Origin: an uncultured Gammaproteobacteria bacterium
GTDB lineage: Bacteria; Patescibacteriota; Microgenomatia; JAMCZE01
Reading direction: 5' to 3'
Assembly (NCBI GenBank): GCA_964609775.1
Contig: CAZSSJ010000001.1
Coordinates: 22,858 to 86,857 of the forward strand
DNA: 64,000 nucleotides
The first letter of the stretch is position 1. Each line of letters begins with the position of its first letter. This document shows positions 2,704 through 29,521 of the stretch, one piece after another. The notes under the pieces were generated by a model. It was given only the letters and a program-made list of their open reading frames with translations. It was not told the DNA's origin and searched no databases. Made by a program: the position numbers and the translations under genes.

Positions 2704-4908
<2,205 letters not shown>

Positions 4909-4909
<1 letters not shown>

Positions 4910-5036: not shown

Positions 5037-5306
5037 GTGGATACTTTACAAGTTCGGATAGTCTCGCCGAAAGGTGAAGTTTTTAAGGGTGAGGCGACGG
5101 CGGTGTCGTCGAGAAATTCGGTGGGAAATTTTGACATTCTTCCCCAACATGCTAATTTTGTGACTTTGGTGAGGAGCGAGAAGATTGTGGTCAGGCTAAT
5201 TTCCGGAAAGGCAGTGGAATTTAAATATGACCTGGCAATTGTGCACGCGGGTTTGGGAAAGGTGGACATTTATACCGACGTTCCGGAGGAAATGACGGCG
5301 AAGTAG
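5037..5306 (+). CDS. atpC: ATP synthase F1 epsilon subunit, beta-sandwich domain only
   Basis: 89 aa. LQVRIVSPKGEVFKGEATAVSSRNSVGNFDILPQHANFVT matches the epsilon N-domain. No C-terminal helical hairpin is encoded. Confidence 0.8.
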   Translation: MDTLQVRIVSPKGEVFKGEATAVSSRNSVGNFDILPQHANFVTLVRSEKIVVRLISGKAVEFKYDLAIVHAGLGKVDIYTDVPEEMTAK

Positions 5307-5773
5307 GTTTTGACTTCAGACGGCAAAGAGACAAGATTTTGGCTACAGGCTTCTAGGGTGGCCGGGTGAGGAGAATTGGAGACGAGGCGAGATTCTTATG
5401 ACGAGATGAAAAGACGGTTCGAAAGGTAAGTTGGCTGATGCAAATTGAGATGGTTTGATAGATGTGATATGAGCGGTTAATTTACCTTTTGTTTGAGAAT
5501 TTGAAGATCAATCTTGGCAGGGGTTGGGGTTTAGGCAAAAGAGATTGGGAAAAAGTGGTAAGAGGTCAAAGGGCCTCATGTTTGGGCAAATTTTGGGCCA
5601 GAAAGAAGGTGTTTCTCCGAAGGATTTCTTCACTATAACTTATTCTCCAGGTTTAGGAGATGACATTAAAAATTGCCGAGGCCCGAGGGGTTTTGAGAAA
5701 AAAGGAAAGCGGATCGCATAAATTTTCATCAGTAAAGTTGGATAGGAAATGAGTTCTAAGTGAATCTAGTATC

Positions 5774-5803
5774 TTGACAAATCTGGGTAAATCTCTTTAT
5801 TCT
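5774..5803 (+). promoter_or_regulatory. Candidate sigma70-type promoter for the giant gene
   Basis: TTGACA at 5774-5779, a 17-18 nt spacer, then TTATTC/TATTCT. It would give a leader of about 135 nt. Confidence 0.3.
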
Positions 5804-5945
5804 GATTATGTGAAAAGTTTTATTAGTATGTGTCACGAATTAAATTATTTAATTTGCAGCCCCACGACGCTCATGTTTGCGCCATGCACTACGTGTATGC
5901 TCGCAAGCAATCGCTTTGCGGGGCAAGGCCTGAGAAACTGCCAGA

Positions 5946-8900
5946 GTGGATAGGAACAAAGCAAAGGGAAAGTACAAGAAGCTTTTAAAGATCGGCGAGG
6001 CTGCGGCTGTTCTTGGCGTTTCCATTGACACGCTGCGCCGGTGGGACCAGGAAGGCAAGTTGAGTTCAATTAAGACCCCCGGGGGGACGAGATATTACTC
6101 CCTGGGCGATTTGCGCAAGATTAACCCTGAAGTCGGGGAGATTATCAAAACAGAAAAGCAGGAAAGGGCGTTTGACCTGACAGCTCTTTCTGAGGAGGCG
6201 AGGCGGGAATATTTGGAAAGCCCGATTGGAAGCCGGGGTGGCCAGCTTGCTCGACCAGGTCAGTCAAAGCGCATCAGTGGGGTCAGTTACCCGAGTCAGG
6301 TGGCGAAAGAAGCAGAGGCTGGGCTTCGAGCGAGAAAGCTGGCCTTGGGGGCGGCTTTGGCTGCAGTTGTTATAGGGTTGGTAGCGACTGGGGTTGTGGC
6401 GCTTCGAGGGACAGGATTGTTTAGGGGGGATTTGGTGAAGACCGGGAGTGAGAGGGAAGGTGCGGGTGAGGTTCTAGCTATTACCGCAGGGAAGAGCTTT
6501 TTGGAGATCGGGGCGGAGACGGTGTTTAAGGATCGGGTCGACTTTGGCGGTTCGGCCGACGGCTTTTCCGTTTTTGGGGGAGACACGGTGTCGCGGCGGC
6601 TGACGGTGACGGGGGCGGATGTGGCCTTAGACCAATCTCTGACGGCATCGTCTTCGCCGACGTTTGCTTCTTTGAAGCTTAGCGGGACGAGTGATCAGAT
6701 TGTGGTTGGGGGAAACGGAACGCTGACTTGGACACCAACGGCGGCGCGGACGGTGACATTTCCCGACGCGACTGGAACGGTTGTTCTGGACACGGCCACT
6801 CAAACCCTGTCAAACAAGTCACTTTCCGGATCAAGTAACACCTTCACGAACATTCCGAATTCGGCGCTGTCGAACTCGAAGATTACCATCAATGCGGGAA
6901 CAAATCTGGGAGGCGGAGGGGATGTGTCCTTGGGATCGAGTGTAACCATTGACCTGGATGACGCTATTTCCCTGACGTCGGCGACTTTTTCCGGGACGCT
7001 GGGGGTCGGGGGAACGGCTTCGGTCGGCGGGCAGATCATTCTTGACGGAGCGACCGCGGAGATTAACGCCACGAATAACCGGCCGCTGGACTTGGGGTTT
7101 GAGAACACCGGGGCGGTGCGGTTTTTGAACTCGACCAACTATGTTGACAGCAATAATAACTTGTATATCAACGGAGTGTTGGTCGCGGGGCCGACGACAC
7201 AAGGTTATTGGCAGAGGAATTCCGGGGCTTTGGCCCCGACGAATATTACGGACTCTTTGGTCGTCGGGGGGACGGCGACGGCGTCGGGAAAGTTTCAAGT
7301 CTACGGACTGTCGGCTCTTAATCCGGTGGCGAGCATTTCGGGGAGTTCATCGAAGGCCGCGTTCATCGTAGATAACACTGTTGGGGATTTGTTTACCGCT
7401 TCCTCCTCCGGCCTCAACCGTTTTGTGATTACCCAGAATGGAAATGTGGGGATTGGGACAAGCGCTCCGGCCTATAAGCTCGATGTCAACGGGTCGACGA
7501 ATATTGCTAATGGGTTGACGATTGCGGCCGGGAACTTGACTTTGACCGGGTCGCAGTCAATTGACGCGACGGGGATTTTGTCCATCGGGACTTCTAACCA
7601 AACATCGCTTCTTATCGGCCGGGTTGGGGCGCCGACGACGATCTACGGCTCGTCGGTGACGATCAGCTCGAGCACGTTTAGCTCCAATGCGGCGACGATT
7701 TCCGGGACGCTCGGCGTCGGGGGCGAAGCTTCGTTTTCGGCCAAAATTATTCTGGATTCGCCAACCTCGGAGATTAATGCCACGAACAGGCGCTATTTGG
7801 ATCTGGGGTTCATGAACACCGGCGGCGTGCGCTTTCTTAATGACACAAACTACATCACTCCGAGCGGGGATCTGTATTTAGCCGGCAGTTTGATCAGTTC
7901 CGGGACACAGGCGGGCTTCTGGCAGCGGCCGGCGAGCACCGGAGCCCTGGCCCCGATAAATATTACTGACTCACTGCTGATCGGCGGCACGGCGACAAGT
8001 TCAGCAAAATTTCAAGTCTATGGTCTCTCAGCGTTAAATCCGGTGGCGTCAATTTCGGCTTCGTCGGCAGTCGCCGGGCTCATGGTGGACAACACCGTCG
8101 GGGATTTGTTTACGGCAAGCTCATCGGGCTTAAACCGGTTTGTGATTACCCAGAATGGAAATGTGGGGATTGGGACGACGGCTCCAGTTGGACTGCTTGA
8201 TGTCGCGGCAACGGCCCCCTTCGTTATCACTTCGGCGGGCCAGGTCGGCATCGGGACGACGAGCCCGGTGGGACTTCTTCATGTTCAGGGAGCGTGTGTC
8301 ACGGGAGACACGCTGATTCGAGTCCGGCGTAGGAAGAAGAAGAAAAATGGTGACTGGGAAGATGAATGGCTTGATTTGCCAATTAAGCAGCTTAAGGCGG
8401 GGGATGAAGTGATGACACTGGATGAAAGGACGGGGGAGTTTACTACCTCAGTGGTTCGGGAACTCATGGACAAAGGGATTAAAACGACCTTTAAACTGAT
8501 GACCGCTGACGGCAAATCCATCCGGACAACAGCGGAACATCCTTATTTGGTGCAGGAAAGTGGCAGCCCGGACAGTAATTTCCTCTCTGGACTGACTTTT
8601 GCTTCAGTGAAAAAGATCTCCCAAGATTACTATTTCACTGTCTTGTCGGGCCGGAAGGTGGCTGTTAAAGCATTGGACGGCGAGATTGTGCATTTCACTA
8701 GCGAAGGGTTCTCTCATATTACTCACGAGAAGAAGAGCGAATTTGAAATAATGACGAGACTTTTTGCTCTGTCTAAAGTTTTGACGGTTCTGGAAACAGG
8801 TGTCAAAGTTTCTCAGAAAGACAGAAAGATCGTTAACGGCAAAGTTAATGATTATTGGACTTTGGAGGAAGTTGTTGAGGGCGTTTTAACTAAAGTTGTT

Positions 8901-11900
8901 GTCAGGTCGATTGAGGACGGGCCGAAGCAATTTTTGTCAGTTGTTTGGAAGGATAAGACTCCGGAAGCCACAAAAAATGTGGGGGACGTTGCCTCTCGCA
9001 TATTGCAGCGACGTGGACGAATGGTTACGTCTCAACGTAGGGCCCACGAGAAGTTTTATACCACAATTCTGGCCGATTTGTCAAGAGGGGTCTGGGGATA
9101 TAGAGGGATTTCCTTAGCGCAAGACTTAGTTTCCAAAAAGAAATGGGTTAAAGTGCGGTTTTTGAAACCCGGCATGGAGATCGCTACTTTCGGGCCTGAT
9201 GGCCGAATTTCCTGGCAGAAGATTGAGTCCATTGAGAAAGTGGGAGAGGAGCAGGTTTATGACATCGAAGTGGAAAACACTCACAATTTTGTGGCCGGGC
9301 ACTATATAGACAACACCAACCAGAGGGCCCTAATTTCACAGGAAGGAGAGATTCTACTTCGTTATCTGTCTTTTGAACAAAAGGAAGCCGAGGAACAGGG
9401 CGATCATGACCAAAGCAAAACCAATTTGGAAACGATTGAAAAATTCTGTCAGGTCAATCATGATTTTTTGCTCCAACTGTCCAAAATAACCGCCGACAGT
9501 AGACAAATTGTAGCCGAACCAATATTGCCTGTCAACACCCAGGCGTCCTTAATGGCGAAAAGTCCCAAGAGCAGTCCGGCTGCCAAGTCGATAAATAAGG
9601 AAGAAAAAATCTTGAGAACGGAAACCCTCATCGAGGAGAGTATAGAAAAGGTGGAGAACCTTGTCAATCGTTACAGGAAAGGCGAAATTCGGTTCGGTGG
9701 CATTGTGGCGCATAACACGACGGGGAAGGCATTGGTGGATCTGAACTACACCGGGACGGATCAGGCAATTTTGACAGCTTCTGTTTCGGGGACCACGAAA
9801 TTTGTCATTAACAATTCCGGTCAAGTGGGAGTGGGAACCGGAGCAAACAACAATACTTTGCTGGCGGATGTGGATTTGCGGACGCTGACGAACACGGTTC
9901 CGGTGGCTTCAATTGCCGGAAGCACGGGAGTGGCAGCCTTGGTGGTGGACAACGTTTCCGGGGATTTATTTACAGCCAGTAGTTCGGGTTTGAGTCGTTT
10001 TGTGATAGATAGGGGAGGGAATGTGGGGATTTCCTCGACGGCGCCGTCACAGAAACTGGACGTGGTTGGGGCGGTGCGGTTGGGAGCTAACGGGGGGGCC
10101 AATGACATTTTGAACACGACGGTTGGGGGAAGTGCCCCGAGCGGGGTTTTGTATTGGGGAAACAGGACGCTGTGTGACACTTCCGGCAACTGTTCGGGAG
10201 TCGGGGGGATTGTGGCCGGGAGCGGAGTCCAATATTACATTAGCAAATGGACTGATGCTTCCGGCACGACAATCGGCGATTCACTGCTGTATGACCCGGG
10301 CACGTCGGTGGGACTCAACACCACCTCGCCGGCGGCGATTTTTGACATTCGGGGCACGCAGGGAACTTCGGCTCTCTCCGGGACTTTGCCGGTGGCCAGC
10401 ATTTCCGGGAAAACAAGTTTTGCGGCGGTGGTGGTGAACAACGATTCGACGGTCGGGGACCTCTTCACGGCTTCGGCGTCGGGGTTAAGCCGGTTTGTCA
10501 TCACCAATACGGGCAACGTGGGCATTGGCACGGCACTTCCGGCCCAGTTGCTCTCGGTCGCCGGGGCGATCCAGTTAGGGAGCGGTTTGGGAGCAAATGA
10601 TGTTCTGAATACTGCTGCTGCCGGGGGGGTGCCGTCGGGACTGCTCTATTGGGGCAGCCGGGAAGTCTGTGATGCTTCGGGCAACTGCGCCGGAGTGGGC
10701 GGGCAGGTCCAGGGGACGGGAACCCAAAACTATATTACCAAGTGGAACAATGCCGGGGGAACGGCGATCGGGGATTCGCTGCTGTATGATTCCGGCTCGG
10801 CGGTGGGTCTGGGAACAACCTCGCCTTTGGGGACACTCCATGTGGTTGGGCAGTGCGTCGTCTCTGGCACAAGGATTCGGCGGCGACGCCGTCGCCGAGG
10901 CTATGGCGCCCGAGGGGCGGAAGAGTGGGTTGAGGAGGAAGTGCCAATTGAGGAGATTGAGCCGGACGATGAAATTGTGTCATTGAACGTTGAGAAGGGG
11001 CGGTTTGAGTGGCACAAGGTGGAAAAGACCCTTAATAAGGGGCTGCTTGCCGGGATGGCCCTTTCGACTTCGACGGGGAAGAGAATCGTGACCACGGGCA
11101 AACATCCATACCTGATGATCGACAAACCGGAAATTACTCAAGGGACTTTTGAGGTTGACCAATCGATTAAAGTGGAAGATTTGGGCAAGGCGACAATTGT
11201 GGGCTTTGCTTTGGGAAAACTGGCCTTTGCGGTGAAACTTCGACAACAGGACAAAAAGTTGATCCGTAGTGGTTTTCAGAAAGCCGGTAAGGAAGATCTC
11301 TTTGCTCCTTTGACCTTTGCCAATGTAGTGGTTAATCTCTTCCGGGCGGCCCAGATCTATCCGGCTAGAATCGCGCTTGATGAAGAATACACCGGCTTTT
11401 TCGGGGAGATTAAAGATATTATTAAAAAGTCCTTCCCGGATGCAGAGGTTTTTGAGACTAATCTGAAAGATTCTTCAGCTGCTCATCAAAGGGTCTGGGC
11501 GGTCAACAAAGGGAGAGCGAAAGAGGATGTCCTCTTGGTTCTTGAGGGCGGAGAATTAAAAGAAAGGCCGGGAGTTAAATCAACTCTGAGCGGAAGACCT
11601 TTGCCCCTGAATGGTTACAGGGGGACCAGTCAACCCATCGGCCTTTACTATGGTGAATTCTATCACCGAGGGGCGAATTTGTCAACCCCTTCGACAAGCT
11701 CAGGGTTGATAGCGAGAAAGACCGAGCTATCAAGGGCTCGATGGGCCAAAGCTGGAGATATTAGGGTCGGTCAGTATGTGGCGACGGAGGATGGGTTTGA
11801 GAAAGTGACGGGGATTTCTGACGCCGGCCGGGTGCTGATGTACGACCTTTCCGTTGCTAACACCCACAACTTCCTCGCCAACGGGATTGTGGCCCATAAC

Positions 11901-14900
11901 ACCGGGACGATGGCGATCGCGACGGTTTCGGGGGCGACGTCTTTTGCGGCCCTCACCGTGGATAACTCCGGCGTCGGGGATTTGTTTACGGCCAGTTCGT
12001 CTGGCTTAAACAGGTTCGTGATTACCCAGAACGGCAACGTCGGCATCGGGACGACGGCTCCAGTTGGACTGCTTGATGTCGCGGCAACGGCCCCCTTCGT
12101 TATCACTTCGGCGGGCCAGGTCGGCATCGGGACGACCTCGCCGGTGGGACTGCTGCATGTCCAGGGGGCGTGTGTGACGGGGGACACATTGTTGAAACGA
12201 CGGCGTAAGAAATGGCGGACACGCAGGTCCGCCCCTACGGAAATGGGACCGGATCCAGAAGGGGATGCTGAATCCACCAAAAAATCCGCTTACGCGGACT
12301 TGGTAAACCAGATCGGCTTGCTAAATGGCTGGCTTGATACCCTTACGGGTAATATATCAGATGGTGATGAAATTGTCAAGGATCAGATGGGCATGGACCT
12401 GCCGGGAGTTGAACCCGGTAGGCTTGGGGTATCAAGCCAGCCTAGCAAACCTGCCAGGCCCATGCCAATGAATAGTATAGCAGACGATGGTGACTATTAC
12501 TGGGAAGATGTGCGGATTGATGAAATTGAGGCGGGGGATGAAGTGATGACCCTGGATGAAAAGAGCGGGGAGTTTGTAGCCAGCACGGTTAAACAATTGA
12601 TGGTGATGGGGAATAAAAAGATCATTAAACTGACAACCGAGAGTGGAAAGACCATTCGGACAACGGAAAAACACCCTTATCTGGTCAAGGTCAAAGGAGA
12701 AAATCAGAAAACAGCCTTCGCTTTCATTGATGAAACAGGAATTACACTTGATCCCGGCCAACACCATCTTGGGGTGGGGGCTCTTAATAAAAAGGAGGAT
12801 GGTGCCTTAAAAGACACGTTTTGTCAAGGGGGAGGGAAGGTGTTTTGGCGTCAAGTTTCAACTCTCAAACCGGGAATGTTGATCGCGACAGTTGATGGCT
12901 TTGAGAAGATTATCAGGATTGAGGAACTGCCCGAGGAGATGGTTTATGACATTGAAGTGGAAAACACCCACAATTTTGTGGCCGGGCACTATGTCGACCA
13001 GGCTTCACAGACGGCGTTAAAAGCGGAGGAGGAAAAGTTTCTCTGTCTTTATCAACAAAACACGTTAACGAGAGAGTTTTCTCTTTTCGACCTTACCGAA
13101 GAAAATCCAAGCCAGAAAAAGGGCAATAAGCCCCAATCCAACTCCTATCCAGGCAGCGATATAAAATTGATCCAAAGTGGTGATCATATGTTTTCAAATA
13201 GCCAGTCTTCTAATTTGATGGCTATCCAGCTACAGAGCGTAGCAAAGATGAGGTTTGCTGTCAAGGCCAAGATGGGGTTGGACGAAGCGAATGATGCAAA
13301 AGCACCAAATATGAACCCAGTGGATAGGTTTGAGAGTATAGATGAAACTACCTTGACTTGGCTAGGGCGAATATTAAAAGAAAACTCCATTAACTTGACT
13401 TTAGACGAAGCGCTTTGTCTTATCAATAAATATGAGTCTGGGGAAATTGTTTATGGGGGCATTGTGGCGCATAACACGACGGGGAAGGCCCTGGCGAATC
13501 TGAACTACACCGGAACCGATCAGGCAATCTTTACAGCTTCTCAGGGAGGAGTGTTGAAGTTTTCTCTTAATGGCATCGGAACAGAGCATACGGCTTCGGT
13601 GGCGGGGACAACGTCTAAGGCGGCTCTGATTGTGGACAACACAATCGGGGATTTGTTCACGGCCTCGTCATCGGGCTTGGCTCGCTTTGTGATAACACAA
13701 AGCGGCAATGTGGGGATTGGGTCCGCCGCTCCCAGCGTCGCTCTGGATGTCACCGGAGCGGGGAAGACGAGTGGGGCCTTTACGGTGGGGAATAATTTGA
13801 CGGTGACGGCCGGGGGCCTCACGGTGACGGCCGGGAACATTGCCCTGACGGGGTCGCAGACGATTGACGGGACCGGGACGCTGACAATTGGCGGCACTTC
13901 GCAGACGTCGCTGGCGTTGGGGAGGAGCGGGGCGCAGACGACGATTTCCGGCGGGCCGGTGGTCGTCAACGGCGCTTCCTTTGCCTCGGCAGGGACAACG
14001 ACATTCACCGGCGGGAATGTGGGGATCGGGACGACGACGGTGACGGATTTTGCTTTGGAGATGGGCGGGAGCATCGGGCCGGTGACGACCGATCAATATG
14101 ATTTGGGGTCGGCCGCTCTCGAATGGAATAATTTGTATGTCAAAAACATTATTTCAACGGGGACGACGGCCGGATTTTGGCAGCGGGCGTCGGGGGTGCT
14201 GGCTCCGCAGAACATTACAGACTCGCTGATTATTGGCGGGACGGCAACATCCTCCGGGAAATTCCAAGTTTACGGCCTATCGGCTCTTAATCCAGTGGCG
14301 AGCATTTCCGGGTCTTCGGCAGTGGCCGCGCTTATGGTCGATAACACAGTGGGAGATTTATTTACGGCCTCATCGTCGGGACTAAATCGGTTTGTGATTA
14401 CTCAAAATGGAAATGTGGGGATTGGGAGCACGGTTCCTGTATCACGGCTTGATACAGGAGGAGGAACAATTTCACTTAATGGTGGGTGGTTGTCGAATGA
14501 TGGTGGAGCTGAAGGTGTGTTTGTTAAAACAGACGGGAATGTGGGTATCGGGACAAGTGCACCAGCCTATAGGCTTGATGTCGTCCACACCACACCGACT
14601 GCGGCAAATGGCAGTGTGTCACCAGATCAAATAGGATTGAGGGTTAACAGGGCCCACTATGTTGGGACCCCTGGACCCTACCCTAATGCTGTTTATGGCG
14701 TTTTGGGTCAAGGCCAAGCAGGTCAGGGGAGTGCCAGTGTGTCTTATTCCAATACGGTGGGTGCTAGAGGTGTGGCTGGACAAGCAATTGTCAATGTTAC
14801 GGGTGGTGCCAGTGTTACGGGTGCAAGTTCATTGTATGCGTTGAATGCTACGATTACTGCTGGAACTTTATCTAATCAATATGGATTATATGTTGAGTCG

Positions 14901-17900
14901 TTATCCGGGGCCTCCAACAATTATGGAGTTTATGTTGCTGGTAATAATTCCTCGTATTTTGGCGGCAACGTCGGCATCGGGACGACGAGCCCGGTGGGAC
15001 TGCTGCATGTCCAGGGGGCGTGCGTGACGGGGGACACCTTGTTAAAAAGACGACGGAAGCGGAAGAGCAAATATGGTGATTGGGAGGAAGACTATTGGGA
15101 AGACATTAGAATTGATGAGATCGAGGCGGGAGACGAAATATTAACTTTTGACGAAACCACTGGCGGATTTACTGCTTCTCAGGTTAGGGAGCTTATGGAT
15201 ATGGGTAAAAAGACCACGTTTAAGTTGGTAACGGAGGGCGGAAAGGAAATTCGGACGACAGCGAACCATCCTTACTTGGTCAAGTCAGCCAATACGAGTA
15301 ATTTCTTCAATGAGACTTTTAAAGTTGTGGCAGAAATTGCCAGGGCCTATTACTTTGCCACTTTAACGTCCTGGGATCCGATTGCTCCGGCCCTGAATAA
15401 TGAGAGAATAAGTATTTCTGAGGAAGGATGGCATCATCTTCATCATAAAGCCAGAAGCAGGGGAGAAATGTTGACGAGGTATTTTGCACTTCCCAAAGCG
15501 GCCGCTCTTCTTGCCAGCAAAGAAGCTCGCGTGACTTATGAACCCGGTGGGGATGGGGTCTCCGAGTTTTGGTCCCTTTATGGAACAGTTGATGATGTTC
15601 AGGTTAAGGTGGTTGTCCGATCAGTCAATAAAGGTCCGAAGTACTTTTACTCTGTCATCTGGAAGAGCGAAGTTAAAGAAGACACTAAAAAAAGAGCTGC
15701 CTCCTGCTTGTATCCGCAGTGTGGGGGAGTGATTACCCCTCAGCTCTTTAATGAGAGGATTATAGACCAGATGAGTGACTTTGTCAAGAAACGAAAGAGA
15801 GACTACCAGCTGGGCTCGTATCTCTCTGGGGAAGATTCTACTACTAAGTGGGTGAAAGTCAAACAATTAAAGCCCGGGATGGAAATTGCCACGGTGGGCG
15901 GGGATGACCAGATTTCTTGGCAGAAGATCAAATCTATTGAAAAAATCGGGGAAGAACAAGTCTTCGACATCGAAGTGGAAAACACCCACAATTTTGTGGC
16001 CAATGGGATTGTGGCGCATAACACGACGGGGAAGGCCTTGGCGAATTTGAACTATACGGGGACGGATCAGGCGATTTTCACCGCTTCGCAGGGGGGAACG
16101 TTGAAGTTTGCTTTGAATGGGACGGGGACGGATTTTACCGCCAGCGTCGCCGGGACGACTTCGAAGGCGGCTCTCATTGTGGACAACACCGTCGGGGATT
16201 TGTTTACGGCCAGCTCCAGTGGCTTAAACAGATTCGTGATTACCCAGAATGGAAATGTGGGCATTGGAATGGCGACGCCTTCTGCTACATTGGAAGTTAG
16301 AAAAGGTCCAATTCCCTCAACATTTGATTCATCTCTTGCTCTCTATTCTGCTGGTCAGTTTGTCAACACGAACACTAACTGGTATGACACGGAATTAAAT
16401 TTACTTGATACTAGGGACCAAGCTGCAGGAGTTGGCGGAAGGCTTGCTTTCGGTGGCGTTTATAGACAAGTTGGGACTACCAATGTAACAACCTTTGCGG
16501 CGATTGGCGGTTATAAAGAGAATTCTACTAGTGGTGATTATGCTGGATATCTCTCGTTTGAAACCAGACCTAACGGTGGAATTTTTACTGAACAGATGAG
16601 AGTTTCTAGTGCTGGCAACGTCGGCATCGGGACGACGAGCCCGGTGGGACTGCTGCATGTTCAGGGGGCGTGCGTGACAGGGGATACTCTGATTCGAGTA
16701 AGACGGCGCAAGAAGAAGAAGAATGGCGAGTGGGAAGATGAATGGCTGGACGTTCCCATTAAAGATATTCAAGCTGGGGACGAAGTGGCCACTCTGGACG
16801 AAAAGACGGGAGAATTCATCGTCTCCAAGGTTAAACAATTAATGAACATGGGGAGAAAAGTGGTCTTTGAACTTTTGACTGAGTCAGGAAAAGTCGTTAA
16901 AACTACAGAAAATCATCCGTATTTGGTTGACCAATCAGGGAAACAAATGGTCTCTGATCTCAGTGCTATCCAGAAGGAAACTTATGAGTTTGCTGAGAAG
17001 TTAGGAAAGAAATACTATGTGAACAACTTGGCTGGCAGGAAGGTTAAGTCTAGGGCTTTGGGCGAATTTGTCGAGTTTAGTCATTCTGGCTGGAACCATT
17101 TTGTGGAGAAAAGCCATTCAATTAATGAACTTATTACTCGATTCTTTGCTTTGCCTCGGGTGGTTACAGTTATCAGATCTAGTCCCCATGTCACTTCATA
17201 TAACATAGTCGAGAAAAAAGACATGACGATTGAATATTGGGAGTTGCAGGAAATTATTGACCATGTTCTTGTTAAAGTTCTAGTCTGCGCTGTTGATGGT
17301 GGACCGAAGTTTTTCTTGACGTGCACTTGGCTCGGGACAAAAGAGAATGAAGGGGTCAAACCAACTAAAAAAGAGCTGTCTCTCTCGCCTAGATCCCGCG
17401 AAATGCAGGACCAGTTGGGTCGACGTCGGGAACTGGTTATCCCTCAGCTCTTTAGTAGGGTGATTATACCAAAGAAAGTCAAGTGGGTCAAGGTCAAGGA
17501 TTTGACTGTAGGTGTGACTATTGCTACCAAAGATGGCTGGGAGAAAGTAGTTTCCATTAAAAAATTGGATGAACAACAAGTTTATGACATTGAAGTGGAA
17601 AACACCCACAATTTCGTGGCCAATGGGATCGTGGCGCATAACACGACGGGCAAGGCCTTGGTGGATCTGAACACCACCGGAGATCAGGCGGTCTTTACGG
17701 CTTCAGTTTCTGGAACGACGAAATTTGTGATTAACAATTCGGGGCAGGTGGGAGTAGGGACGGGGGCAAACAACAATACCCTTTTGGCGGATGTGGATTT
17801 GCGGACGCTGACAAACACTGTACCGGTGGCTTCAATTTCCGGAAGCACCGGAGTGGCAGCATTGGTGGTGGACAATGTTTCCGGCGATGTGTTTACGGCG

Positions 17901-20900
17901 TCAACTTCGGGATTGAGCCGGTTTGTGATTGACAAGAACGGAAATGTGGGGATCGGGAGTTCGGCTCCAGGATACAAACTGGATGTTTCGGGAACGGCTC
18001 ATGTCACCGGAGCAGTCACTTTAGATACGGCCCTGACGGTGGCCAATGGGGGGACGGGAGCCCAGACATTCACAGACAACGGCGTGCTCTTTGGCAACCT
18101 GACGGCCGCCATTGGAGCGACGGCCGAAGGAGCGACCGGGCAGTGCCTCATCGGGAACACCGGGAGCGCGCCATCATGGTCAGCATGTACCACGGCCTCA
18201 GGGCAGTTGTGGCAGGAAGCTTTGGGAGTGGTCGCGCCGCTGAACATCACGGATTCCCTGATTATTGGGAAGATCGCGACACCCAGCGGGGCCATTACCT
18301 CGGGCAGCATGCAGATTTACGGGGTGAACAACCTGACCCCGGTCGCCTCTATTTCGGGGGTCAGTGCGGTGGCGGCGCTCATCGTGGACAACACCGGCGG
18401 GGATGTCTTCACGGCCAGCACTTCGGGACTGACCAGATTTGTGATTGACAAGAACGGCAACGTCGGGATTGGGACAACGAGCCCGGATTATCCACTTGTA
18501 GTAGTAGGGACAGCTTCTGACGGAACACGGACACTTGAGGTAAAAAATTCAGTTGCTGGTAGTATATCTAATTTCCAAGTAACAGGTGATGGTGTCAACG
18601 CTCGCCTTATGGCGTTGTCTAGTTCGTATTCATCATCCGGGGCTTATGCTGCTGATACAGTTGTCTTAGACGACGATCAGGGTTACGCTGCTGGCCTTAC
18701 ACTACTTGCCCGTAATTCAAGTGGGTATATCCGAATGTTTACAGGCGGTTTTGATGACGGAAATGAGCGTCTGAGAATTAACAGCACTGGCAACGTCGGC
18801 ATCGGGACGACGAGTCCGGTGGGACTGCTGCATGTTCAGGGACAATGCGTCATTGCCGGAACAAAAATTAAAAGAAGAAAGAAGAAAGAAAAAAGAAGAA
18901 AGCAAGACACTGCCGGAACGGGGCCGGATCCGGTCGGCGATTGGGACTATGAAGATGTTCCCATCGAACAGATCGAACCGGATGATGAGATTCTTTCCCT
19001 AAACCAGGAAAAGGGCCAGTTTGAGTGGCACAAGGTGGAACAAACCATGAATAAAGGACTCCTGCCGGCCTTGGCTCTGACAACTTCTACTGGAAAGAGA
19101 ATTGTCACGACGGCAAAACATCCATATTTGGCGATCGATCGGCCGGAAACTACTCAAGGGACTTTTGAGGTGGATCAATCAATCAAGATCGAGAATTTGG
19201 GGGCGGCAAGCATTATAGGGTTTGCCCTGGGGAAACTAGCTTTTGCCGTTAAGCTGCCGCAGAAGGATAAGAAGATTATTCTCGCTCGTTATCAGAAGAA
19301 GAACCAAAAAGATGTTTTTGCCCATGAGACTTTTGCCCGATGTGTGGTTGCCGCCTTTAAGATTGCCCGGATTTATCCAGCGAGAATTGCTCTCGATGAA
19401 GAATACACCAGTTACTTCCGAAGAATCGAGAGCGTTATTAAGGAAAGTTTCCCTGACAGCGAGATTTTTCAAACCAACCTTAAGGATGGTTCCGCCGCCC
19501 ACAAAAAGGTCTGGGCTGTTAATAGGGGAATTTTAAGAGAGGATGCTGTTCTAAGTTTGGAATCGGGAGAATTAAAAGAAAGGCCGGGGGTTAAATCAAC
19601 CTTCAGAATGCCTTTGCCCCTGGTTGGTTACAGGGGGACCAGTCATCCACACGGCCTTTACTATGGAGAATTCTACTCCACGGAGCGGGAATTGTCAAGA
19701 GCAAAGTGGGTTAAGGCCGCGGAGGTTAGGAAAGGGATGTGTGTGGCGACGGAGGATGGTTTTGAGAAGGTCACAGGGATTTCCGATGCGGGGCAGGTGG
19801 CGATGTATGATCTGCAAATTGCCAACACTCACAATTTTGTGGCCAATGGGATTGTGGCGCATAACACGACGGGGAAGGCCCTGGTGGATCTGAACACCAC
19901 CGGGGACCAGGCGGTGTTCACCGCCAGTGTTTCCGGAAACACCAAGTTTGTGATTAACAATTCAGGACAGGTGGGAGTGGGAACCGGAGCAAACAACAAC
20001 ACGCTGCTGGCCGATGTGGATTTGCGGACGCTGACAAACACGGTTCCGGTGGCTTCAATTGCCGGGAGCACGGGGGTGGCGGCTCTGGTTGTGGACAATA
20101 CAGCCGGGGATCTTTTCACCGCCTCGTCAAGTGGGCTATCAAGATTTGTGATTGACAAGAACGGGAATGTGGGGATTGGGACGGCGGCGCCGACGGCTCT
20201 GGTGTCTTTAGCTAACTCGAACTATACGACGCAAAACATGTTGAACGTGGCGGGGACGTCGACAGGGTTGACGACCGGGTCACTGGCGAGTTTTGACTGG
20301 AGTCCGACGGACTGGTCGACCTCGAGCGGGAATTTGGTGAATATTAATCTTGGCAGTTTGGCCGACACGACGGGAAACATCTTTAATATTTCCGATGACG
20401 GCAGCTCGATCTTCTCGGTTTCGCCGCAGCAGATTGTCAACTCGTTGCCAACGTCATTTAATGCCGCCGGAGATGTGGCGATTGCCTATGACATTAATTT
20501 CACCAATCCGACGGCATCATACATTAAATCTGCTGCACCCATGTATTTGCAGGCAGGGGAGCTATTTAATTCCTCGGATTTGACGTTGAAGACCTTTAAC
20601 AAAGGCTTGATTGTTCTGGATCCAGATGAAGCGGTCACAATTGATGGGGCGGCTTCTGTGTCGGGGCAGCTCATGGTCGGCAGTACGACAGCGGCGCCGG
20701 CGCAGTTTGGCAAGTTCTATGTGACGGACTCTAACACGGCCACTTCTTCAGCCTTCATTGAAAACACTAACACAGCTGCAGCAATTTCGGGTTTGGTCAT
20801 TAAGCTGGGGAGTACGACCCTGGACACCACCTCGCATTTTGTTAATTTTCTTGATTTGAACGGCAAGATGATTGGCAACATTCGGGCAGCTAACACGACA

Positions 20901-21923
20901 ACGGTTGCTTATCAGACAAGCGGAATTGCGGATTTTGGGGAATGGATGAAAGTTTCTTCGGATTTGACTAATTTGTCTAATTGGACCAATTTGGTTTCTC
21001 CGGGGACGATTGTTTGTCAAAGCGCGGATGGGGTGGAGCCCTGCGAGGCGAGTGAGTCGGCGAGGATGGCGGGGGTGACTTCTGACACGACGGCGTTTTT
21101 GGGAGGAGAGGAGAAAGACGGAAGCGTGGTTGTCGGAATGTTGGGACAAATTCGAGTGAAGATCGCAACGGACTCAGCGCAAATTGAGCCGGGTGACGCG
21201 ATTGGGGTGGCGATCGCCGGTTTGGGAAAGAAAATTACGTCACGGGGATATGTGGTCGGCCGGGCGATGGAATCATGGTCCTCCGGACAAGAGAAAGTCT
21301 TAGTTTATGTCAACCCCGGTTACTTTGAGGGCCCCGAGTCGCAGCTGGCGTCGAAACTCTCGGTGGATGAGATTCAGGAACAGGTGGCGTCGATCAGTGC
21401 AAATTTGACTAATTTGTCTAATTGGTCCAATTTGAACAGCGACGAATTTGCGACGGTTTCGGGAAACCTGAAAGTTTTGGGAATGACGGAGCTTTCCAAC
21501 ACGACGATTGGCGGGTCGCTCACTGTGGGACTGGTCCATGTTGATGATTTGCTGGGCGATGTTTCCGGTTTGAATGGGAGTTTGAGTTTGCAAAACGGGA
21601 TGCTGACAATTAGTCAAATTGGACAAATTGGTCAAATTGGGGTTAACGGCGATTTGACAGTTTCCGGGGAGTTGACGGCGAAGAAGATTAACGTGCCGAC
21701 GGGAGTGGCTGGGGCCTCGGCGGGCAAGGCGACGATTCTTGCTGGACAAAGCGAAATTGAGATTACGACCAGCGCGCTTAGTGCTAATTCCTTGATTTTT
21801 GCGACACCGGAAGACGTGCCGGTGGCCGTCTCGACGACCAAGACAGCGACAGACAAGTTTAAGATCAAACTGGACTCCCCTGCGGGGGCAAACATCAAAA
21901 TTAATTGGTGGATAATCAATTAG
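5946..21923 (+). CDS. Giant repetitive surface protein (5,325-aa precursor; 3,069 aa after removal of six inteins)
   Basis: Single uninterrupted ORF with a GTG start. Many ...DLFTASSSGLNRFVITQNGNVGIGT... repeats. C-terminal ...GMLGQIRVKIATDSAQIEPGDAIG... module. Confidence 0.9.
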   Translation: MDRNKAKGKYKKLLKIGEAAAVLGVSIDTLRRWDQEGKLSSIKTPGGTRYYSLGDLRKINPEVGEIIKTEKQERAFDLTALSEEARREYLESPIGSRGGQLARPGQSKRISGVSYPSQVAKEAEAGLRARKLALGAALAAVVIGLVATGVVALRGTGLFRGDLVKTGSEREGAGEVLAITAGKSFLEIGAETVFKDRVDFGGSADGFSVFGGDTVSRRLTVTGADVALDQSLTASSSPTFASLKLSGTSDQIVVGGNGTLTWTPTAARTVTFPDATGTVVLDTATQTLSNKSLSGSSNTFTNIPNSALSNSKITINAGTNLGGGGDVSLGSSVTIDLDDAISLTSATFSGTLGVGGTASVGGQIILDGATAEINATNNRPLDLGFENTGAVRFLNSTNYVDSNNNLYINGVLVAGPTTQGYWQRNSGALAPTNITDSLVVGGTATASGKFQVYGLSALNPVASISGSSSKAAFIVDNTVGDLFTASSSGLNRFVITQNGNVGIGTSAPAYKLDVNGSTNIANGLTIAAGNLTLTGSQSIDATGILSIGTSNQTSLLIGRVGAPTTIYGSSVTISSSTFSSNAATISGTLGVGGEASFSAKIILDSPTSEINATNRRYLDLGFMNTGGVRFLNDTNYITPSGDLYLAGSLISSGTQAGFWQRPASTGALAPINITDSLLIGGTATSSAKFQVYGLSALNPVASISASSAVAGLMVDNTVGDLFTASSSGLNRFVITQNGNVGIGTTAPVGLLDVAATAPFVITSAGQVGIGTTSPVGLLHVQGACVTGDTLIRVRRRKKKKNGDWEDEWLDLPIKQLKAGDEVMTLDERTGEFTTSVVRELMDKGIKTTFKLMTADGKSIRTTAEHPYLVQESGSPDSNFLSGLTFASVKKISQDYYFTVLSGRKVAVKALDGEIVHFTSEGFSHITHEKKSEFEIMTRLFALSKVLTVLETGVKVSQKDRKIVNGKVNDYWTLEEVVEGVLTKVVVRSIEDGPKQFLSVVWKDKTPEATKNVGDVASRILQRRGRMVTSQRRAHEKFYTTILADLSRGVWGYRGISLAQDLVSKKKWVKVRFLKPGMEIATFGPDGRISWQKIESIEKVGEEQVYDIEVENTHNFVAGHYIDNTNQRALISQEGEILLRYLSFEQKEAEEQGDHDQSKTNLETIEKFCQVNHDFLLQLSKITADSRQIVAEPILPVNTQASLMAKSPKSSPAAKSINKEEKILRTETLIEESIEKVENLVNRYRKGEIRFGGIVAHNTTGKALVDLNYTGTDQAILTASVSGTTKFVINNSGQVGVGTGANNNTLLADVDLRTLTNTVPVASIAGSTGVAALVVDNVSGDLFTASSSGLSRFVIDRGGNVGISSTAPSQKLDVVGAVRLGANGGANDILNTTVGGSAPSGVLYWGNRTLCDTSGNCSGVGGIVAGSGVQYYISKWTDASGTTIGDSLLYDPGTSVGLNTTSPAAIFDIRGTQGTSALSGTLPVASISGKTSFAAVVVNNDSTVGDLFTASASGLSRFVITNTGNVGIGTALPAQLLSVAGAIQLGSGLGANDVLNTAAAGGVPSGLLYWGSREVCDASGNCAGVGGQVQGTGTQNYITKWNNAGGTAIGDSLLYDSGSAVGLGTTSPLGTLHVVGQCVVSGTRIRRRRRRRGYGARGAEEWVEEEVPIEEIEPDDEIVSLNVEKGRFEWHKVEKTLNKGLLAGMALSTSTGKRIVTTGKHPYLMIDKPEITQGTFEVDQSIKVEDLGKATIVGFALGKLAFAVKLRQQDKKLIRSGFQKAGKEDLFAPLTFANVVVNLFRAAQIYPARIALDEEYTGFFGEIKDIIKKSFPDAEVFETNLKDSSAAHQRVWAVNKGRAKEDVLLVLEGGELKERPGVKSTLSGRPLPLNGYRGTSQPIGLYYGEFYHRGANLSTPSTSSGLIARKTELSRARWAKAGDIRVGQYVATEDGFEKVTGISDAGRVLMYDLSVANTHNFLANGIVAHNTGTMAIATVSGATSFAALTVDNSGVGDLFTASSSGLNRFVITQNGNVGIGTTAPVGLLDVAATAPFVITSAGQVGIGTTSPVGLLHVQGACVTGDTLLKRRRKKWRTRRSAPTEMGPDPEGDAESTKKSAYADLVNQIGLLNGWLDTLTGNISDGDEIVKDQMGMDLPGVEPGRLGVSSQPSKPARPMPMNSIADDGDYYWEDVRIDEIEAGDEVMTLDEKSGEFVASTVKQLMVMGNKKIIKLTTESGKTIRTTEKHPYLVKVKGENQKTAFAFIDETGITLDPGQHHLGVGALNKKEDGALKDTFCQGGGKVFWRQVSTLKPGMLIATVDGFEKIIRIEELPEEMVYDIEVENTHNFVAGHYVDQASQTALKAEEEKFLCLYQQNTLTREFSLFDLTEENPSQKKGNKPQSNSYPGSDIKLIQSGDHMFSNSQSSNLMAIQLQSVAKMRFAVKAKMGLDEANDAKAPNMNPVDRFESIDETTLTWLGRILKENSINLTLDEALCLINKYESGEIVYGGIVAHNTTGKALANLNYTGTDQAIFTASQGGVLKFSLNGIGTEHTASVAGTTSKAALIVDNTIGDLFTASSSGLARFVITQSGNVGIGSAAPSVALDVTGAGKTSGAFTVGNNLTVTAGGLTVTAGNIALTGSQTIDGTGTLTIGGTSQTSLALGRSGAQTTISGGPVVVNGASFASAGTTTFTGGNVGIGTTTVTDFALEMGGSIGPVTTDQYDLGSAALEWNNLYVKNIISTGTTAGFWQRASGVLAPQNITDSLIIGGTATSSGKFQVYGLSALNPVASISGSSAVAALMVDNTVGDLFTASSSGLNRFVITQNGNVGIGSTVPVSRLDTGGGTISLNGGWLSNDGGAEGVFVKTDGNVGIGTSAPAYRLDVVHTTPTAANGSVSPDQIGLRVNRAHYVGTPGPYPNAVYGVLGQGQAGQGSASVSYSNTVGARGVAGQAIVNVTGGASVTGASSLYALNATITAGTLSNQYGLYVESLSGASNNYGVYVAGNNSSYFGGNVGIGTTSPVGLLHVQGACVTGDTLLKRRRKRKSKYGDWEEDYWEDIRIDEIEAGDEILTFDETTGGFTASQVRELMDMGKKTTFKLVTEGGKEIRTTANHPYLVKSANTSNFFNETFKVVAEIARAYYFATLTSWDPIAPALNNERISISEEGWHHLHHKARSRGEMLTRYFALPKAAALLASKEARVTYEPGGDGVSEFWSLYGTVDDVQVKVVVRSVNKGPKYFYSVIWKSEVKEDTKKRAASCLYPQCGGVITPQLFNERIIDQMSDFVKKRKRDYQLGSYLSGEDSTTKWVKVKQLKPGMEIATVGGDDQISWQKIKSIEKIGEEQVFDIEVENTHNFVANGIVAHNTTGKALANLNYTGTDQAIFTASQGGTLKFALNGTGTDFTASVAGTTSKAALIVDNTVGDLFTASSSGLNRFVITQNGNVGIGMATPSATLEVRKGPIPSTFDSSLALYSAGQFVNTNTNWYDTELNLLDTRDQAAGVGGRLAFGGVYRQVGTTNVTTFAAIGGYKENSTSGDYAGYLSFETRPNGGIFTEQMRVSSAGNVGIGTTSPVGLLHVQGACVTGDTLIRVRRRKKKKNGEWEDEWLDVPIKDIQAGDEVATLDEKTGEFIVSKVKQLMNMGRKVVFELLTESGKVVKTTENHPYLVDQSGKQMVSDLSAIQKETYEFAEKLGKKYYVNNLAGRKVKSRALGEFVEFSHSGWNHFVEKSHSINELITRFFALPRVVTVIRSSPHVTSYNIVEKKDMTIEYWELQEIIDHVLVKVLVCAVDGGPKFFLTCTWLGTKENEGVKPTKKELSLSPRSREMQDQLGRRRELVIPQLFSRVIIPKKVKWVKVKDLTVGVTIATKDGWEKVVSIKKLDEQQVYDIEVENTHNFVANGIVAHNTTGKALVDLNTTGDQAVFTASVSGTTKFVINNSGQVGVGTGANNNTLLADVDLRTLTNTVPVASISGSTGVAALVVDNVSGDVFTASTSGLSRFVIDKNGNVGIGSSAPGYKLDVSGTAHVTGAVTLDTALTVANGGTGAQTFTDNGVLFGNLTAAIGATAEGATGQCLIGNTGSAPSWSACTTASGQLWQEALGVVAPLNITDSLIIGKIATPSGAITSGSMQIYGVNNLTPVASISGVSAVAALIVDNTGGDVFTASTSGLTRFVIDKNGNVGIGTTSPDYPLVVVGTASDGTRTLEVKNSVAGSISNFQVTGDGVNARLMALSSSYSSSGAYAADTVVLDDDQGYAAGLTLLARNSSGYIRMFTGGFDDGNERLRINSTGNVGIGTTSPVGLLHVQGQCVIAGTKIKRRKKKEKRRKQDTAGTGPDPVGDWDYEDVPIEQIEPDDEILSLNQEKGQFEWHKVEQTMNKGLLPALALTTSTGKRIVTTAKHPYLAIDRPETTQGTFEVDQSIKIENLGAASIIGFALGKLAFAVKLPQKDKKIILARYQKKNQKDVFAHETFARCVVAAFKIARIYPARIALDEEYTSYFRRIESVIKESFPDSEIFQTNLKDGSAAHKKVWAVNRGILREDAVLSLESGELKERPGVKSTFRMPLPLVGYRGTSHPHGLYYGEFYSTERELSRAKWVKAAEVRKGMCVATEDGFEKVTGISDAGQVAMYDLQIANTHNFVANGIVAHNTTGKALVDLNTTGDQAVFTASVSGNTKFVINNSGQVGVGTGANNNTLLADVDLRTLTNTVPVASIAGSTGVAALVVDNTAGDLFTASSSGLSRFVIDKNGNVGIGTAAPTALVSLANSNYTTQNMLNVAGTSTGLTTGSLASFDWSPTDWSTSSGNLVNINLGSLADTTGNIFNISDDGSSIFSVSPQQIVNSLPTSFNAAGDVAIAYDINFTNPTASYIKSAAPMYLQAGELFNSSDLTLKTFNKGLIVLDPDEAVTIDGAASVSGQLMVGSTTAAPAQFGKFYVTDSNTATSSAFIENTNTAAAISGLVIKLGSTTLDTTSHFVNFLDLNGKMIGNIRAANTTTVAYQTSGIADFGEWMKVSSDLTNLSNWTNLVSPGTIVCQSADGVEPCEASESARMAGVTSDTTAFLGGEEKDGSVVVGMLGQIRVKIATDSAQIEPGDAIGVAIAGLGKKITSRGYVVGRAMESWSSGQEKVLVYVNPGYFEGPESQLASKLSVDEIQEQVASISANLTNLSNWSNLNSDEFATVSGNLKVLGMTELSNTTIGGSLTVGLVHVDDLLGDVSGLNGSLSLQNGMLTISQIGQIGQIGVNGDLTVSGELTAKKINVPTGVAGASAGKATILAGQSEIEITTSALSANSLIFATPEDVPVAVSTTKTATDKFKIKLDSPAGANIKINWWIIN
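5982..6404 (+). other. N-terminal MerR/excisionase-type HTH (aa 13-58) plus a single TM helix (aa 132-153) of the giant protein
   Basis: LLKIGEAAAVLGVSIDTLRRWDQEGKLSSIKTPGGTRYY matches the HTH_17/MerR pattern. LALGAALAAVVIGLVATGVVAL is a hydrophobic span. Confidence 0.6.
8295..9716 (+). mobile_element. Intein 1 (474 aa): class-A insert plus a 133-aa insertion between blocks F and G
   Basis: Starts CVTGDTLI after LHVQGA. Block B TTAEHPYLV, block F VYDIEVENTHNFVAG, ends GGIVAHN followed by Thr. Confidence 0.85.
10854..11900 (+). mobile_element. Intein 2 (349 aa): class-B insert
   Basis: Starts CVVSGTRI after LHVVGQ. Block B TTGKHPYLM, block F MYDLSVANTHNFLA, ends NGIVAHN followed by Thr. Confidence 0.85.
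12171..13475 (+). mobile_element. Intein 3 (435 aa): about 100-aa insertion after block A and a 157-aa insertion between blocks F and G
   Basis: Starts CVTGDTLL. Block B TTEKHPYLV, block F VYDIEVENTHNFVAG, ends GGIVAHN followed by Thr. Confidence 0.85.
15021..16022 (+). mobile_element. Intein 4 (334 aa): class-A insert
   Basis: Starts CVTGDTLL. Block B TTANHPYLV, block F VFDIEVENTHNFVA, ends NGIVAHN followed by Thr. Confidence 0.85.
16671..17642 (+). mobile_element. Intein 5 (324 aa): class-A insert
   Basis: Starts CVTGDTLI. Block B TTENHPYLV, block F VYDIEVENTHNFVA, ends NGIVAHN followed by Thr. Confidence 0.85.
18846..19865 (+). mobile_element. Intein 6 (340 aa): class-B insert
   Basis: Starts CVIAGTKI after LHVQGQ. 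Block B TTAKHPYLA, block F MYDLQIANTHNFVA, ends NGIVAHN followed by Thr. Confidence 0.85.
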
Positions 21924-21971
21924 GCTGGCTTGCCCTGAGCTTGTCGAAGGGTGGATTGTGAATTAACGAAA

Positions 21972-29320: not shown

Positions 29321-29343
29321 GATTTCGGTGGTTTTACTCTCCT

Positions 29344-29507: not shown

Positions 29508-29521
29508 ATTGTTGGGATGCC

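Follow-up and report, generated by a model that had tools for sequence, protein, structure and literature searches.

The 64,000-nt stretch of DNA analyzed here (the window; contig CAZSSJ010000001.1 of assembly GCA_964609775.1) holds, on its plus strand, one gene for a giant surface fiber protein that is interrupted by six predicted inteins (Table 1). The window belongs to a cellular genome, encoding F-type ATP synthase subunits, leucyl-tRNA synthetase (LeuRS), RuvB, ComEA and ComEC as well, and its RuvB is identical to KKU92043.1 and OGG19396.1, which places it in the Microgenomates / Ca. Gottesmanbacteria lineage from the Rifle aquifer (groundwater). The open reading frame (ORF; 5946-21923) runs without interruption across 5,325 codons. 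The inteins occupy 6,768 of its 15,978 nt, or 2,256 aa of the precursor, and the extein segments of 783, 379, 90, 515, 216, 401 and 685 aa sum to 3,069 aa. An earlier note on this DNA had listed the sizes of the six elements and the extein lengths, and a script run on the ORF returned the same figure in every case.

That note had described a repetitive envelope protein, and a domain search showed the host to be a repetitive membrane-anchored fiber and no replication enzyme. C-terminal to the sole predicted transmembrane (TM) helix, the spliced protein has ~2,900 residues of Gly/Thr/Ser/Val-rich repeats with interspersed GNVGIGT motifs. This repeat family is very large, with 1,282 matches to one 188-aa junction query, mostly without an intein, and it includes proteins with the endosialidase-chaperone domain PF13884, hence its tail-fiber character.

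The host gene is no assembly artifact. Five further assemblies (two NCBI metagenome-assembled genomes and three ENA samples, covering different samples and pipelines) have an identical gene call of 5,325 aa, and over its first 8,964 nt they depart from the window sequence by 0-1 nt; a sixth assembly, L001, differs only by additional repeat sequence in extein 1. These relatives were found through atpD and represent the same population, so they are silent on occupancy polymorphism. In L001 (ENA ERZ28564264 scaffold_216), an independent assembly, the sequence corresponding to window 7412-7554 in the repetitive extein 1 is divergent and 173 nt longer, and the gene call is split into 551 + 4,832 aa; this reflects either repeat-length variation or an assembly difference. 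In a 283-aa fragment, P0001, the C-terminal half of intein 5 (99% identical) runs into the extein found after intein 1 (window 17200-17642 versus 9717-10100). Either this allele arose by recombination through the downstream module that both sites share, or the fragment is a chimera of the assembly. Repeats of this kind break metagenome assemblies built from short reads, and these alternative joins, together with recurrent frame breaks in the related locus L004, would fit a scenario in which collapsed or chimeric repeats only appear to place six inteins in one gene. The agreement of the five other assemblies speaks against it, and the six inteins cannot be collapsed repeats because their pairwise identity is only 26-69%; we therefore give this scenario practically no weight.

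All six elements have the complete set of splicing residues, including the +1 Thr. As the earlier note had read them, each begins with Cys1, directly after ...LHV(Q/V)G(A/Q), carries block B (TT..HPYL) and block F ((V/M)(Y/F)D(I/L).(V/I)(E/A)NTHNF), and ends in GIVAHN followed by the +1 Thr, a residue kept in 34/34 full-length family members. They have the Hint horseshoe fold of class 1 inteins. The intein profile PF14890 (Intein_splicing; cutoff 35.8 bits) matched all six at 52-77 bits (E 7e-14 to 1.6e-21), well past anything expected by chance, and TIGR01443 was likewise above cutoff in 6/6; TIGR01445 exceeded its cutoff in inteins 1, 3, 4 and 5, with no match reported for 2 and 6. By contrast, PF07591 (PT-HINT; cutoff 27.7 bits) was weaker than PF14890 throughout and fell below cutoff in five elements, reaching 34.2 bits in intein 5 against 75.3 for PF14890. 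The profile searches proposed in the earlier note thus point to inteins and away from pretoxin-HINT and bacterial intein-like (BIL) domains. Together, these features suggest that the elements are probably genuine class 1 inteins in chemistry and fold. In the splicing reaction that we predict, an N-S acyl shift at Cys1, trans-esterification onto the +1 Thr and cyclization of the terminal Asn would let each intein excise itself after translation. Excision would rejoin the fiber modules into the 3,069-aa protein with junctions of the type ...LHVQGA-TTGKAL... (predicted sequence in this gene ...LHVQGA.TTGKALVDLNTTGDQAVFTASVSGTT...; junction peptide, for example, GLLHVQGATTGK; spliced-junction DNA CATGTTCAGGGGGCG joined to ACGACGGGCAAGGCC).

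Hint domains can also be autoproteolytic without splicing, in which case the precursor would be cut into seven fiber pieces. BIL domains, as reportedly described by Amitai in 2003 and Dassa in 2004, typically have no C-flanking nucleophile and no nested domain, are compact, and mainly cleave. Their bacterial host proteins are variable and non-conserved, and many are secreted or lie on the surface (PMC7765530). Types A and B share the Hint fold with the elements described here and resemble them in location, since the host here is a repetitive surface fiber; the insertion point is nevertheless the most conserved motif of that fiber. We rejected a BIL identity on the +1 Thr in 6/6, the sizes of 324-474 aa, the nested domains, which compact, endonuclease-free BIL domains lack, and the better match to the intein profile. 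Pretoxin-HINT domains (PF07591) likewise occur in large surface or secreted proteins with variable nuclease-type domains, but they sit before a C-terminal toxin and free it by cleavage, whereas here the variable domain is nested within the Hint domain and the host continues on both sides with a restorable junction. That identity was rejected as well, given the PF07591 scores and a host that runs on for hundreds of residues after each element. Cleavage without ligation is therefore very unlikely: the +1 Thr is required just for ligation, and joining the exteins gives back a module that intein-free homologs have in one piece.

The term canonical, used in the earlier note, suits the splicing chemistry of the elements but not their architecture. 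They have no classical homing endonuclease. Inteins 1 and 3 contain atypical insertions of 134-158 aa that separate block F from block G and that the note had overlooked, and intein 3 contains a further ~90-aa insertion after block A. The F-G variant recurs in loci L002, L003, L004, L008, L010, L017, L030 and L039, and insertions analogous to the post-block-A insertion of intein 3 are found in L003, L004 and L008. To our knowledge, no intein with an insertion between these two blocks has been described before. The F-G insertion of intein 1 had no Pfam match and, in PHROGs, only a sub-significant one to a family of unknown function (E 0.0055). An alternative C-terminal splice site in intein 1, GHYIDN↓T (the arrow marks the junction here and below), was rejected, as its Asn-Thr is not conserved in the homologous insertions of L003, L004, L008, L017 and L039, and weak IscB and RRXRR matches in intein 3 (E 0.075-0.09) were dismissed as noise. 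All six inteins also share a polybasic run, with 8-11 Arg/Lys within residues 7-22; at least five such residues are present in 25/34 relatives.

Table 1. Features of the intein-bearing fiber gene, in window positions. Splicing and topology are predictions.
Feature	Coordinates	Strand	Evidence
Host gene, 5,325-codon precursor; 3,069 aa once six inteins are removed	5946..21923	+	Single open ORF; 5,325-aa call in five other assemblies
MerR-type helix-turn-helix, host N-terminus (aa 13-58)	5982..6119	+	PF00376 E 3.5e-12, PF13411, HTH_17
Sole predicted TM helix (aa 132-153)	6339..6404	+	Only 19-aa stretch with mean Kyte-Doolittle hydropathy >1.8
Site 1 N-extein flank, conserved (GQVGIGTTSPVGLLHVQGA)	8238..8294	+	83-100% nt identity to same 57 nt of sites 3-6
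Intein 1, 474 aa: Hint + LPD3-like nested domain + block F-G insertion	8295..9716	+	PF14890 54.6 bits; C1, T79, H82, D323, H330, HN, +1 T
Intein 1 nested class A (LPD3-like) domain	8550..9143	+	PF18798 E 6.4e-4, below cutoff; homologous to intein 5 domain, tblastn E 5e-22
Intein 1 insertion between block F (NTHNFVA) and block G (GIVAHN), 134 aa	9297..9698	+	Alignment; homologous to intein 3 insertion, E 1.5e-6
Site 1 C-extein flank, conserved (TTGKALVDLN)	9717..9746	+	87-93% nt identity to sites 3-6
Intein 2, 349 aa: Hint + RNase H-fold nested domain; flanks unlike the other five sites	10854..11900	+	PF14890 57.5 bits; 69% aa identity to intein 6; flanks 37-57% identical to others
Intein 2 nested class B (RNase H-fold) domain	11118..11684	+	67% identical to intein 6 domain; D...DxE...H conserved
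Site 3 N-extein flank, conserved	12114..12170	+	
Intein 3, 435 aa: Hint + post-block-A loop insertion + nested-domain remnant + block F-G insertion	12171..13475	+	PF14890 52.4 bits; alignment; splicing residues
Intein 3 insertion, ~90 aa, right behind the polybasic tract (bounds approximate)	12213..12494	+	Alignment gap versus other five
Intein 3 remnant, 54 aa, of DUF3800-like nested domain (FAFIDETGI...)	12684..12845	+	Resembles full domain in P0004, P0040, L006
Intein 3 block F-G insertion, 158 aa	12984..13457	+	Alignment
Site 3 C-extein flank, conserved	13476..13505	+	
Site 4 N-extein flank, conserved	14964..15020	+	
Intein 4, 334 aa: Hint + LPD3-like nested domain	15021..16022	+	PF14890 77.1 bits; Hint part 86% identical to L006 intein
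Intein 4 nested class A domain	15279..15848	+	tblastn E 3e-9 to intein 5 domain; alignment
Site 4 C-extein flank, conserved	16023..16052	+	
Site 5 N-extein flank, conserved	16614..16670	+	
Intein 5, 324 aa: Hint + LPD3-like nested domain	16671..17642	+	PF14890 75.3 bits
Intein 5 nested class A domain	16926..17483	+	42 relatives; invariant H, R, W
Site 5 C-extein flank, conserved	17643..17672	+	
Site 6 N-extein flank, conserved	18789..18845	+	
Intein 6, 340 aa: Hint + RNase H-fold nested domain	18846..19865	+	
Intein 6 nested class B domain, RNase H-like fold	19131..19706	+	
Site 6 C-extein flank, conserved	19866..19895	+	
Peptidase_G2 / intramolecular-chaperone-like stretch, weak, tail-spike flavor, last extein	20868..21110	+	PF11962 E 1.1e-3, below cutoff

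Sites 1, 3, 4, 5 and 6 resemble one another closely at the DNA level, with 83-100% identity over the upstream 57 nt and 87-93% over the downstream 30 nt. Identity drops to 35-75% over the first 60 nt of the inteins and to random level in the more distal flanks. A shared upstream motif had been claimed for the insertions; this stands for sites 4-6, which read GNVGIGT, but sites 1 and 3 read GQVGIGT and site 2 SAVGLGT. Within intein-bearing ORFs, His occupies position -5 in 37/40 occupied motif copies compared to 18/99 empty copies (Fisher p = 1e-16), and the -1 residue is Gln in 31 of the 40 occupied ones. The family targets one sub-variant of the GNVGIGT motif, LHVxG(Q/A)↓T; no other sequence of these fibers is as conserved or as often repeated. 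Because this target recurs many times per gene and across many genes, several intein lineages could invade paralogous copies of it.

Intein-free versions of the module exist in other genomes, as the earlier note had suggested checking. In the Amesbacteria protein P0108 and the fragment P0155 the module is uninterrupted (...GNVGIGTTSPVGKLEVSGAVVGKALAIFNETGDQ... and ...SGGVTGKALAILNQTGNQDILTASTSGTTKFVINN...), and a search with a degenerate DNA pattern for H-V-x-G-x-T-T-G-K-A-L gave 12 matches, four of them in frame. These empty junctions read ...FHVAGA.TTGKALAIFNETGDQNILTASASGTT... in L067 (a 322-aa ORF on a 1,070-nt contig), ...LHVDGT.TTGKAL... in the fiber ORFs of L063 and L068, and ...FHVNGK.TTGKALAILNETGNQ... 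in that of L074; the fiber ORFs of L063, L068 and L074 span 1,363-2,897 aa, and the intein hidden Markov models (HMMs) had no match in any of the four loci. Intein-free genes are contiguous at the junction, and the predicted splice product therefore matches a naturally uninterrupted sequence. For orthologues of the gene itself, a metagenome scan with the gene-specific N-terminus found no relatives.

On a neighbor-joining tree of 139 splicing-domain columns, built without bootstrap, the inteins fall into three groups, {1,4,5}, {2,6} and {3}. The first takes in an intein from another organism (L006) that is 86% identical to intein 4, and intein 4 is nearer to it than to any intein of its own gene. 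The second lies beside the inteins of L011 and L005, and intein 3 lies beside that of L003; L005 likewise combines mixed lineages with within-gene twins. Synonymous divergence (dS) of the flanks, based on 29 codons only, is 0.14-0.38, compared to 0.85 to saturated, and mostly saturated, for the inteins. The gene contains longer extein duplications as well (sites 1-3 upstream, ~210 nt; 3-4 downstream, ~240 nt; 5-6 downstream, ~330 nt), each of which pairs inteins of different lineages, while inteins 2 and 6, the closest pair (69%), lie in unrelated flanks. GC content at third codon positions is lower in the inteins (0.47-0.55) than in the adjacent exteins (0.50-0.77) at every site. The dS gap, the mismatched duplications, the tree and the codon composition all speak against a simple duplication of extein-intein cassettes, and the pattern argues for two or three intein lineages that would have repeatedly invaded pre-existing paralogous targets, with some within-gene spread.

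A fuller version of the duplication model holds that extein-plus-intein cassettes were duplicated segmentally and their flanks later homogenized by gene conversion, with no present-day homing and with the nested domains as passengers or decaying. The extein is indeed highly repetitive (the duplicated blocks beside inteins are 210-330 nt long and 70-100% identical), the repeat length of extein 1 differs in a variant assembly, a nested domain is replaced by low-complexity linkers in many relatives and reduced to a remnant in intein 3, and the identical population copies display no ongoing mobility. This model must nonetheless explain why duplicated blocks pair inteins of other lineages or classes, why intein divergence far exceeds flank divergence, and why intein 4 is closest to another organism's intein. 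The class B nested domain, moreover, is under strong purifying selection, since its dN is 0.24 against a dS of 2.9. We consider cassette duplication unlikely on balance, with gene conversion that keeps flanks uniform as a partial alternative.

The preferred reading, which we hold to be likely, is that of six class 1 inteins from a selfish family found across Patescibacteria that repeatedly invaded paralogous copies of a fiber motif. At least two and probably three lineages would have entered this gene, with within-gene spread in {2,6} and {1,4,5}. Of the attributes of mobile inteins, the family shows a defined target, occupied and empty alleles, and an intein phylogeny discordant with host or flanks. 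The earlier proposal of spread among paralogous sites of one gene is supported for intragenic spread, but independent invasions contributed too, as each lineage has relatives elsewhere. The habit is family-wide in Patescibacteria and not peculiar to this gene, and homing is the presumed rather than observed route.

A search with intein 5 returned 59 matches, nearly all from Patescibacteria, with family junctions of the form ...GNVGIGTTxPxxxLHVxGQ↓CVTGDT..RRRRK... and ...GIVAHN↓TY(I/L)xGNVGIGTT.... A genome scan yielded 50 loci, and HMMs of the N- and C-terminal splicing regions placed the family at the motif site in ~25 genomes, with hosts that include Blackburn-, Davies-, Yanofsky-, Shapiro-, Beckwith-, Pace- and Saccharibacteria; loci L025-L051 were left out of the family as ordinary inteins in GyrB, UvrD-like and polymerase genes. 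Several ORFs are multi-copy: L002 (3), L008 (4), L011 (2), L005 (5, in an ORF of >5,135 aa) and L004 (at least 9, in a frame-broken chain). In L004 (positions 3557-19963; Ca. Daviesbacteria, JACPKL010000001.1) six overlapping ORFs are chained, and four of five frame breaks fall at one place, within the loop insertion following '...RRRRKRRTMDDGEIEDGDLK'; this could be a decaying multi-intein gene, a repeat misassembly or something systematic. A second type of site follows the PF13884 domain in P0045, P0046 and P0051 (...VLSVVPGVDSQ↓CVTGDTRLRRRKKK...), and P0064 has the same family inside an unrelated 3,223-aa protein, so the family is not strictly limited to the GNVGIGT motif. In a check for a phage vector, a scan of viral contigs with two peptide patterns found three loci only, all ordinary inteins in other genes, an absence that is weak evidence. 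In the literature, where subscription journals were thinly covered, we found no description of inteins in fiber proteins from candidate phyla radiation (CPR) bacteria, nor of inteins that nest NYN, RNase H or LPD3 domains, and this intein family of CPR bacteria is apparently new.

LAGLIDADG and HNH are the usual nested endonuclease classes of inteins (PMC7765530), but Pfam and NCBIfam searches at E <= 0.1-1 detected neither class in the six inteins. Instead, inteins 2 and 6 carry a domain (class B) with conserved D...DxE...H and an RNase H-like core (beta-beta-beta-alpha-beta-alpha-beta, with acidic residues in strand 1, strand 4 and the following helix). Inteins 1, 4 and 5 carry a second type (class A), of ~190 aa with invariant His, Arg and Trp, for which an exhaustive search of 1.84 billion representatives found only 42 relatives. 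The LPD3 profile PF18798 (cutoff 27 bits) scored it weakly and below cutoff in intein 1 (20.3 bits) and intein 5 (15.9 bits) with no match in intein 4, and matched 5/16 class A homologs (best E 1.1e-6). Class A appears to be a distant relative of the LPD3 domain known from polyvalent proteins of phages and plasmids (PF18798; Iyer et al. 2017, PMC5512222), whose nesting in an intein was not previously reported within the literature searched. The relatives of class A are nested in inteins of other fiber giants, free-standing (130-200 aa), present in LeuRS without Hint, or part of polyvalent-type giants, P0097 and P0103 among them. In the LeuRS proteins P0082 and P0090 of other organisms the LPD3-like domain is inserted directly; the domain may itself be mobile as an in-frame insertion, or a degraded intein may be what is seen in these LeuRS proteins. 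The LeuRS of the window (56338-58977) had no class A copy in a tblastn check.

Inteins of relatives contain nested NYN domains, and L006 combines a Hint domain 86% identical to that of intein 4 with DUF3800-like cargo, which implies that cargo is swapped on a constant scaffold. In many relatives low-complexity linkers replace the nested domain, which looks like decay. Mobility would most likely be driven by these nested domains (the nuclease-like RNase H fold, LPD3-like and, in relatives, NYN and DUF3800-like), exchanged, we suggest, among closely related Hint scaffolds. Whether the RNase H-fold and LPD3-like domains form new classes of putative homing endonucleases is a proposal we make tentatively and with some doubt.

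Inteins are known from textbooks as occupants of conserved sites in replication, repair and nucleotide-metabolism enzymes, and the usual explanations for their distribution invoke those functions. The present elements share ordinary chemistry and fold with canonical class 1 inteins (the NpuDnaB mini-intein, PDB 4o1r; PI-PfuI and PI-SceI, with endonuclease) and differ in five respects: host, target, number per gene, nested domains and insertions. Their host is a repetitive, predicted-exported fiber in place of a nucleic-acid or ATP enzyme, their nested domains are RNase H-fold, LPD3-like, NYN or DUF3800-like and not LAGLIDADG/HNH, and they add a polybasic tract after block A and, in some, the large F-G insertion. 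Multi-intein genes have been described in haloarchaeal MCM (four sites), Trichodesmium ribonucleotide reductase (four) and Anaeramoeba Prp8 (five) (PMC10643990, PMC10710043), the last surpassing an earlier maximum of four (PMC10710043). Anaeramoeba also offers evidence of intragenic and inter-paralogue spread with several inteins per ORF, as here, but in MCM, ribonucleotide reductase and Prp8 each intein occupies a different non-repeated site of an essential enzyme, whereas the six here share one repeated motif.

A repeated motif permits a record copy number in one gene, six against the published maximum of five (PMC10710043), and with five in L005 and at least nine, degenerate, in L004, such numbers are routine in the family. 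The occurrence of the family on a structural repeat of giant surface fibers supports the view that an intein needs a conserved, hard-to-mutate target and not a particular host function. The nested domains, swapped on one Hint scaffold, are candidate new intein-associated nucleases, and compact Thr+1 inteins that tolerate large loop insertions are of interest for protein engineering.

Several considerations weigh against repeated invasion by active inteins. The F-G insertions make activity of inteins 1 and 3 less certain, and among the recovered near-identical gene copies we saw no occupancy polymorphism at the six sites. The tree and the flank dS have the narrow basis given above. For the cargo, the RNase H fold is not an established homing endonuclease class (PMC7765530), LPD3 has no function assigned (PMC5512222), and the class A model found no structural match in the PDB. 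Predicted export of the host region is also awkward for an endonuclease that needs DNA, and raises the question of where splicing occurs.

The predicted topology would place the HTH inside the membrane and the fiber with its inteins outside. This HTH-TM-fiber plan recurs in other CPR giants (P0066, P0085, P0091). At window 5946-6404 and in those three proteins, a MerR-type DNA-binding HTH, one TM helix and thousands of extracellular residues form a ToxR-like arrangement, hinting at a link between surface fiber and transcription. How and where six inteins leave a 5,325-aa protein of an ultra-small bacterium that is predicted to be bound for export is a puzzle. One answer would be co-option, with splicing on or outside the cell freeing the inteins as effectors toward the host of an episymbiont, or gating fiber maturation. 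The predicted exterior position fits this idea, as do the cargo kinds, which are typical of conflict systems (LPD3 of phage/plasmid polyvalent proteins, NYN, RNase H-like), their swapping on a constant Hint scaffold, and the polybasic tract of most members. The strict target specificity, decayed cargo and intein/host discordance are instead the classic signature of selfish homing, and co-option, which depends on a predicted topology, seems to us quite improbable. A 'polymorphic effector' system, in which surface splicing would free inteins with interchangeable nuclease-type cargo and a poly-Arg/Lys tract, with Hint as the delivery or release device, is a rather improbable extension of it.

The fiber gene is followed directly by genes for three more large surface proteins. 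The first (2,038 aa; 21951-28067) contains DUF2341 and five Laminin_G_3 domains, the second (1,124 aa; 29619-32993) combines Big_7 and a dockerin with SBBP beta-propeller repeats, and the third (424 aa; 32983-34257) contains Big_7 and matches cohesin weakly; the dockerin and cohesin proteins are a possible pair. We found no intein in these three proteins (21951-34257); elsewhere, P0040 is a Laminin_G_3 protein that bears the same intein family. Two AAA_14 + DUF4143 ATPase genes stand on either side of the surface-protein cluster (28199-29320, minus strand; 36358-37566, plus strand), and 47292-48365 (plus strand) encodes a Fic/DOC domain protein whose C-terminus is a fused winged-helix (TrmB/MarR-like) domain. 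Nearly all 2-kb pieces of the window (1-64000) have a positive GC skew, up to +0.38, and cumulative skew climbs near-monotonically whatever the gene orientation; an unusual strand composition disparity has reportedly been ascribed to one Microgenomates genome.

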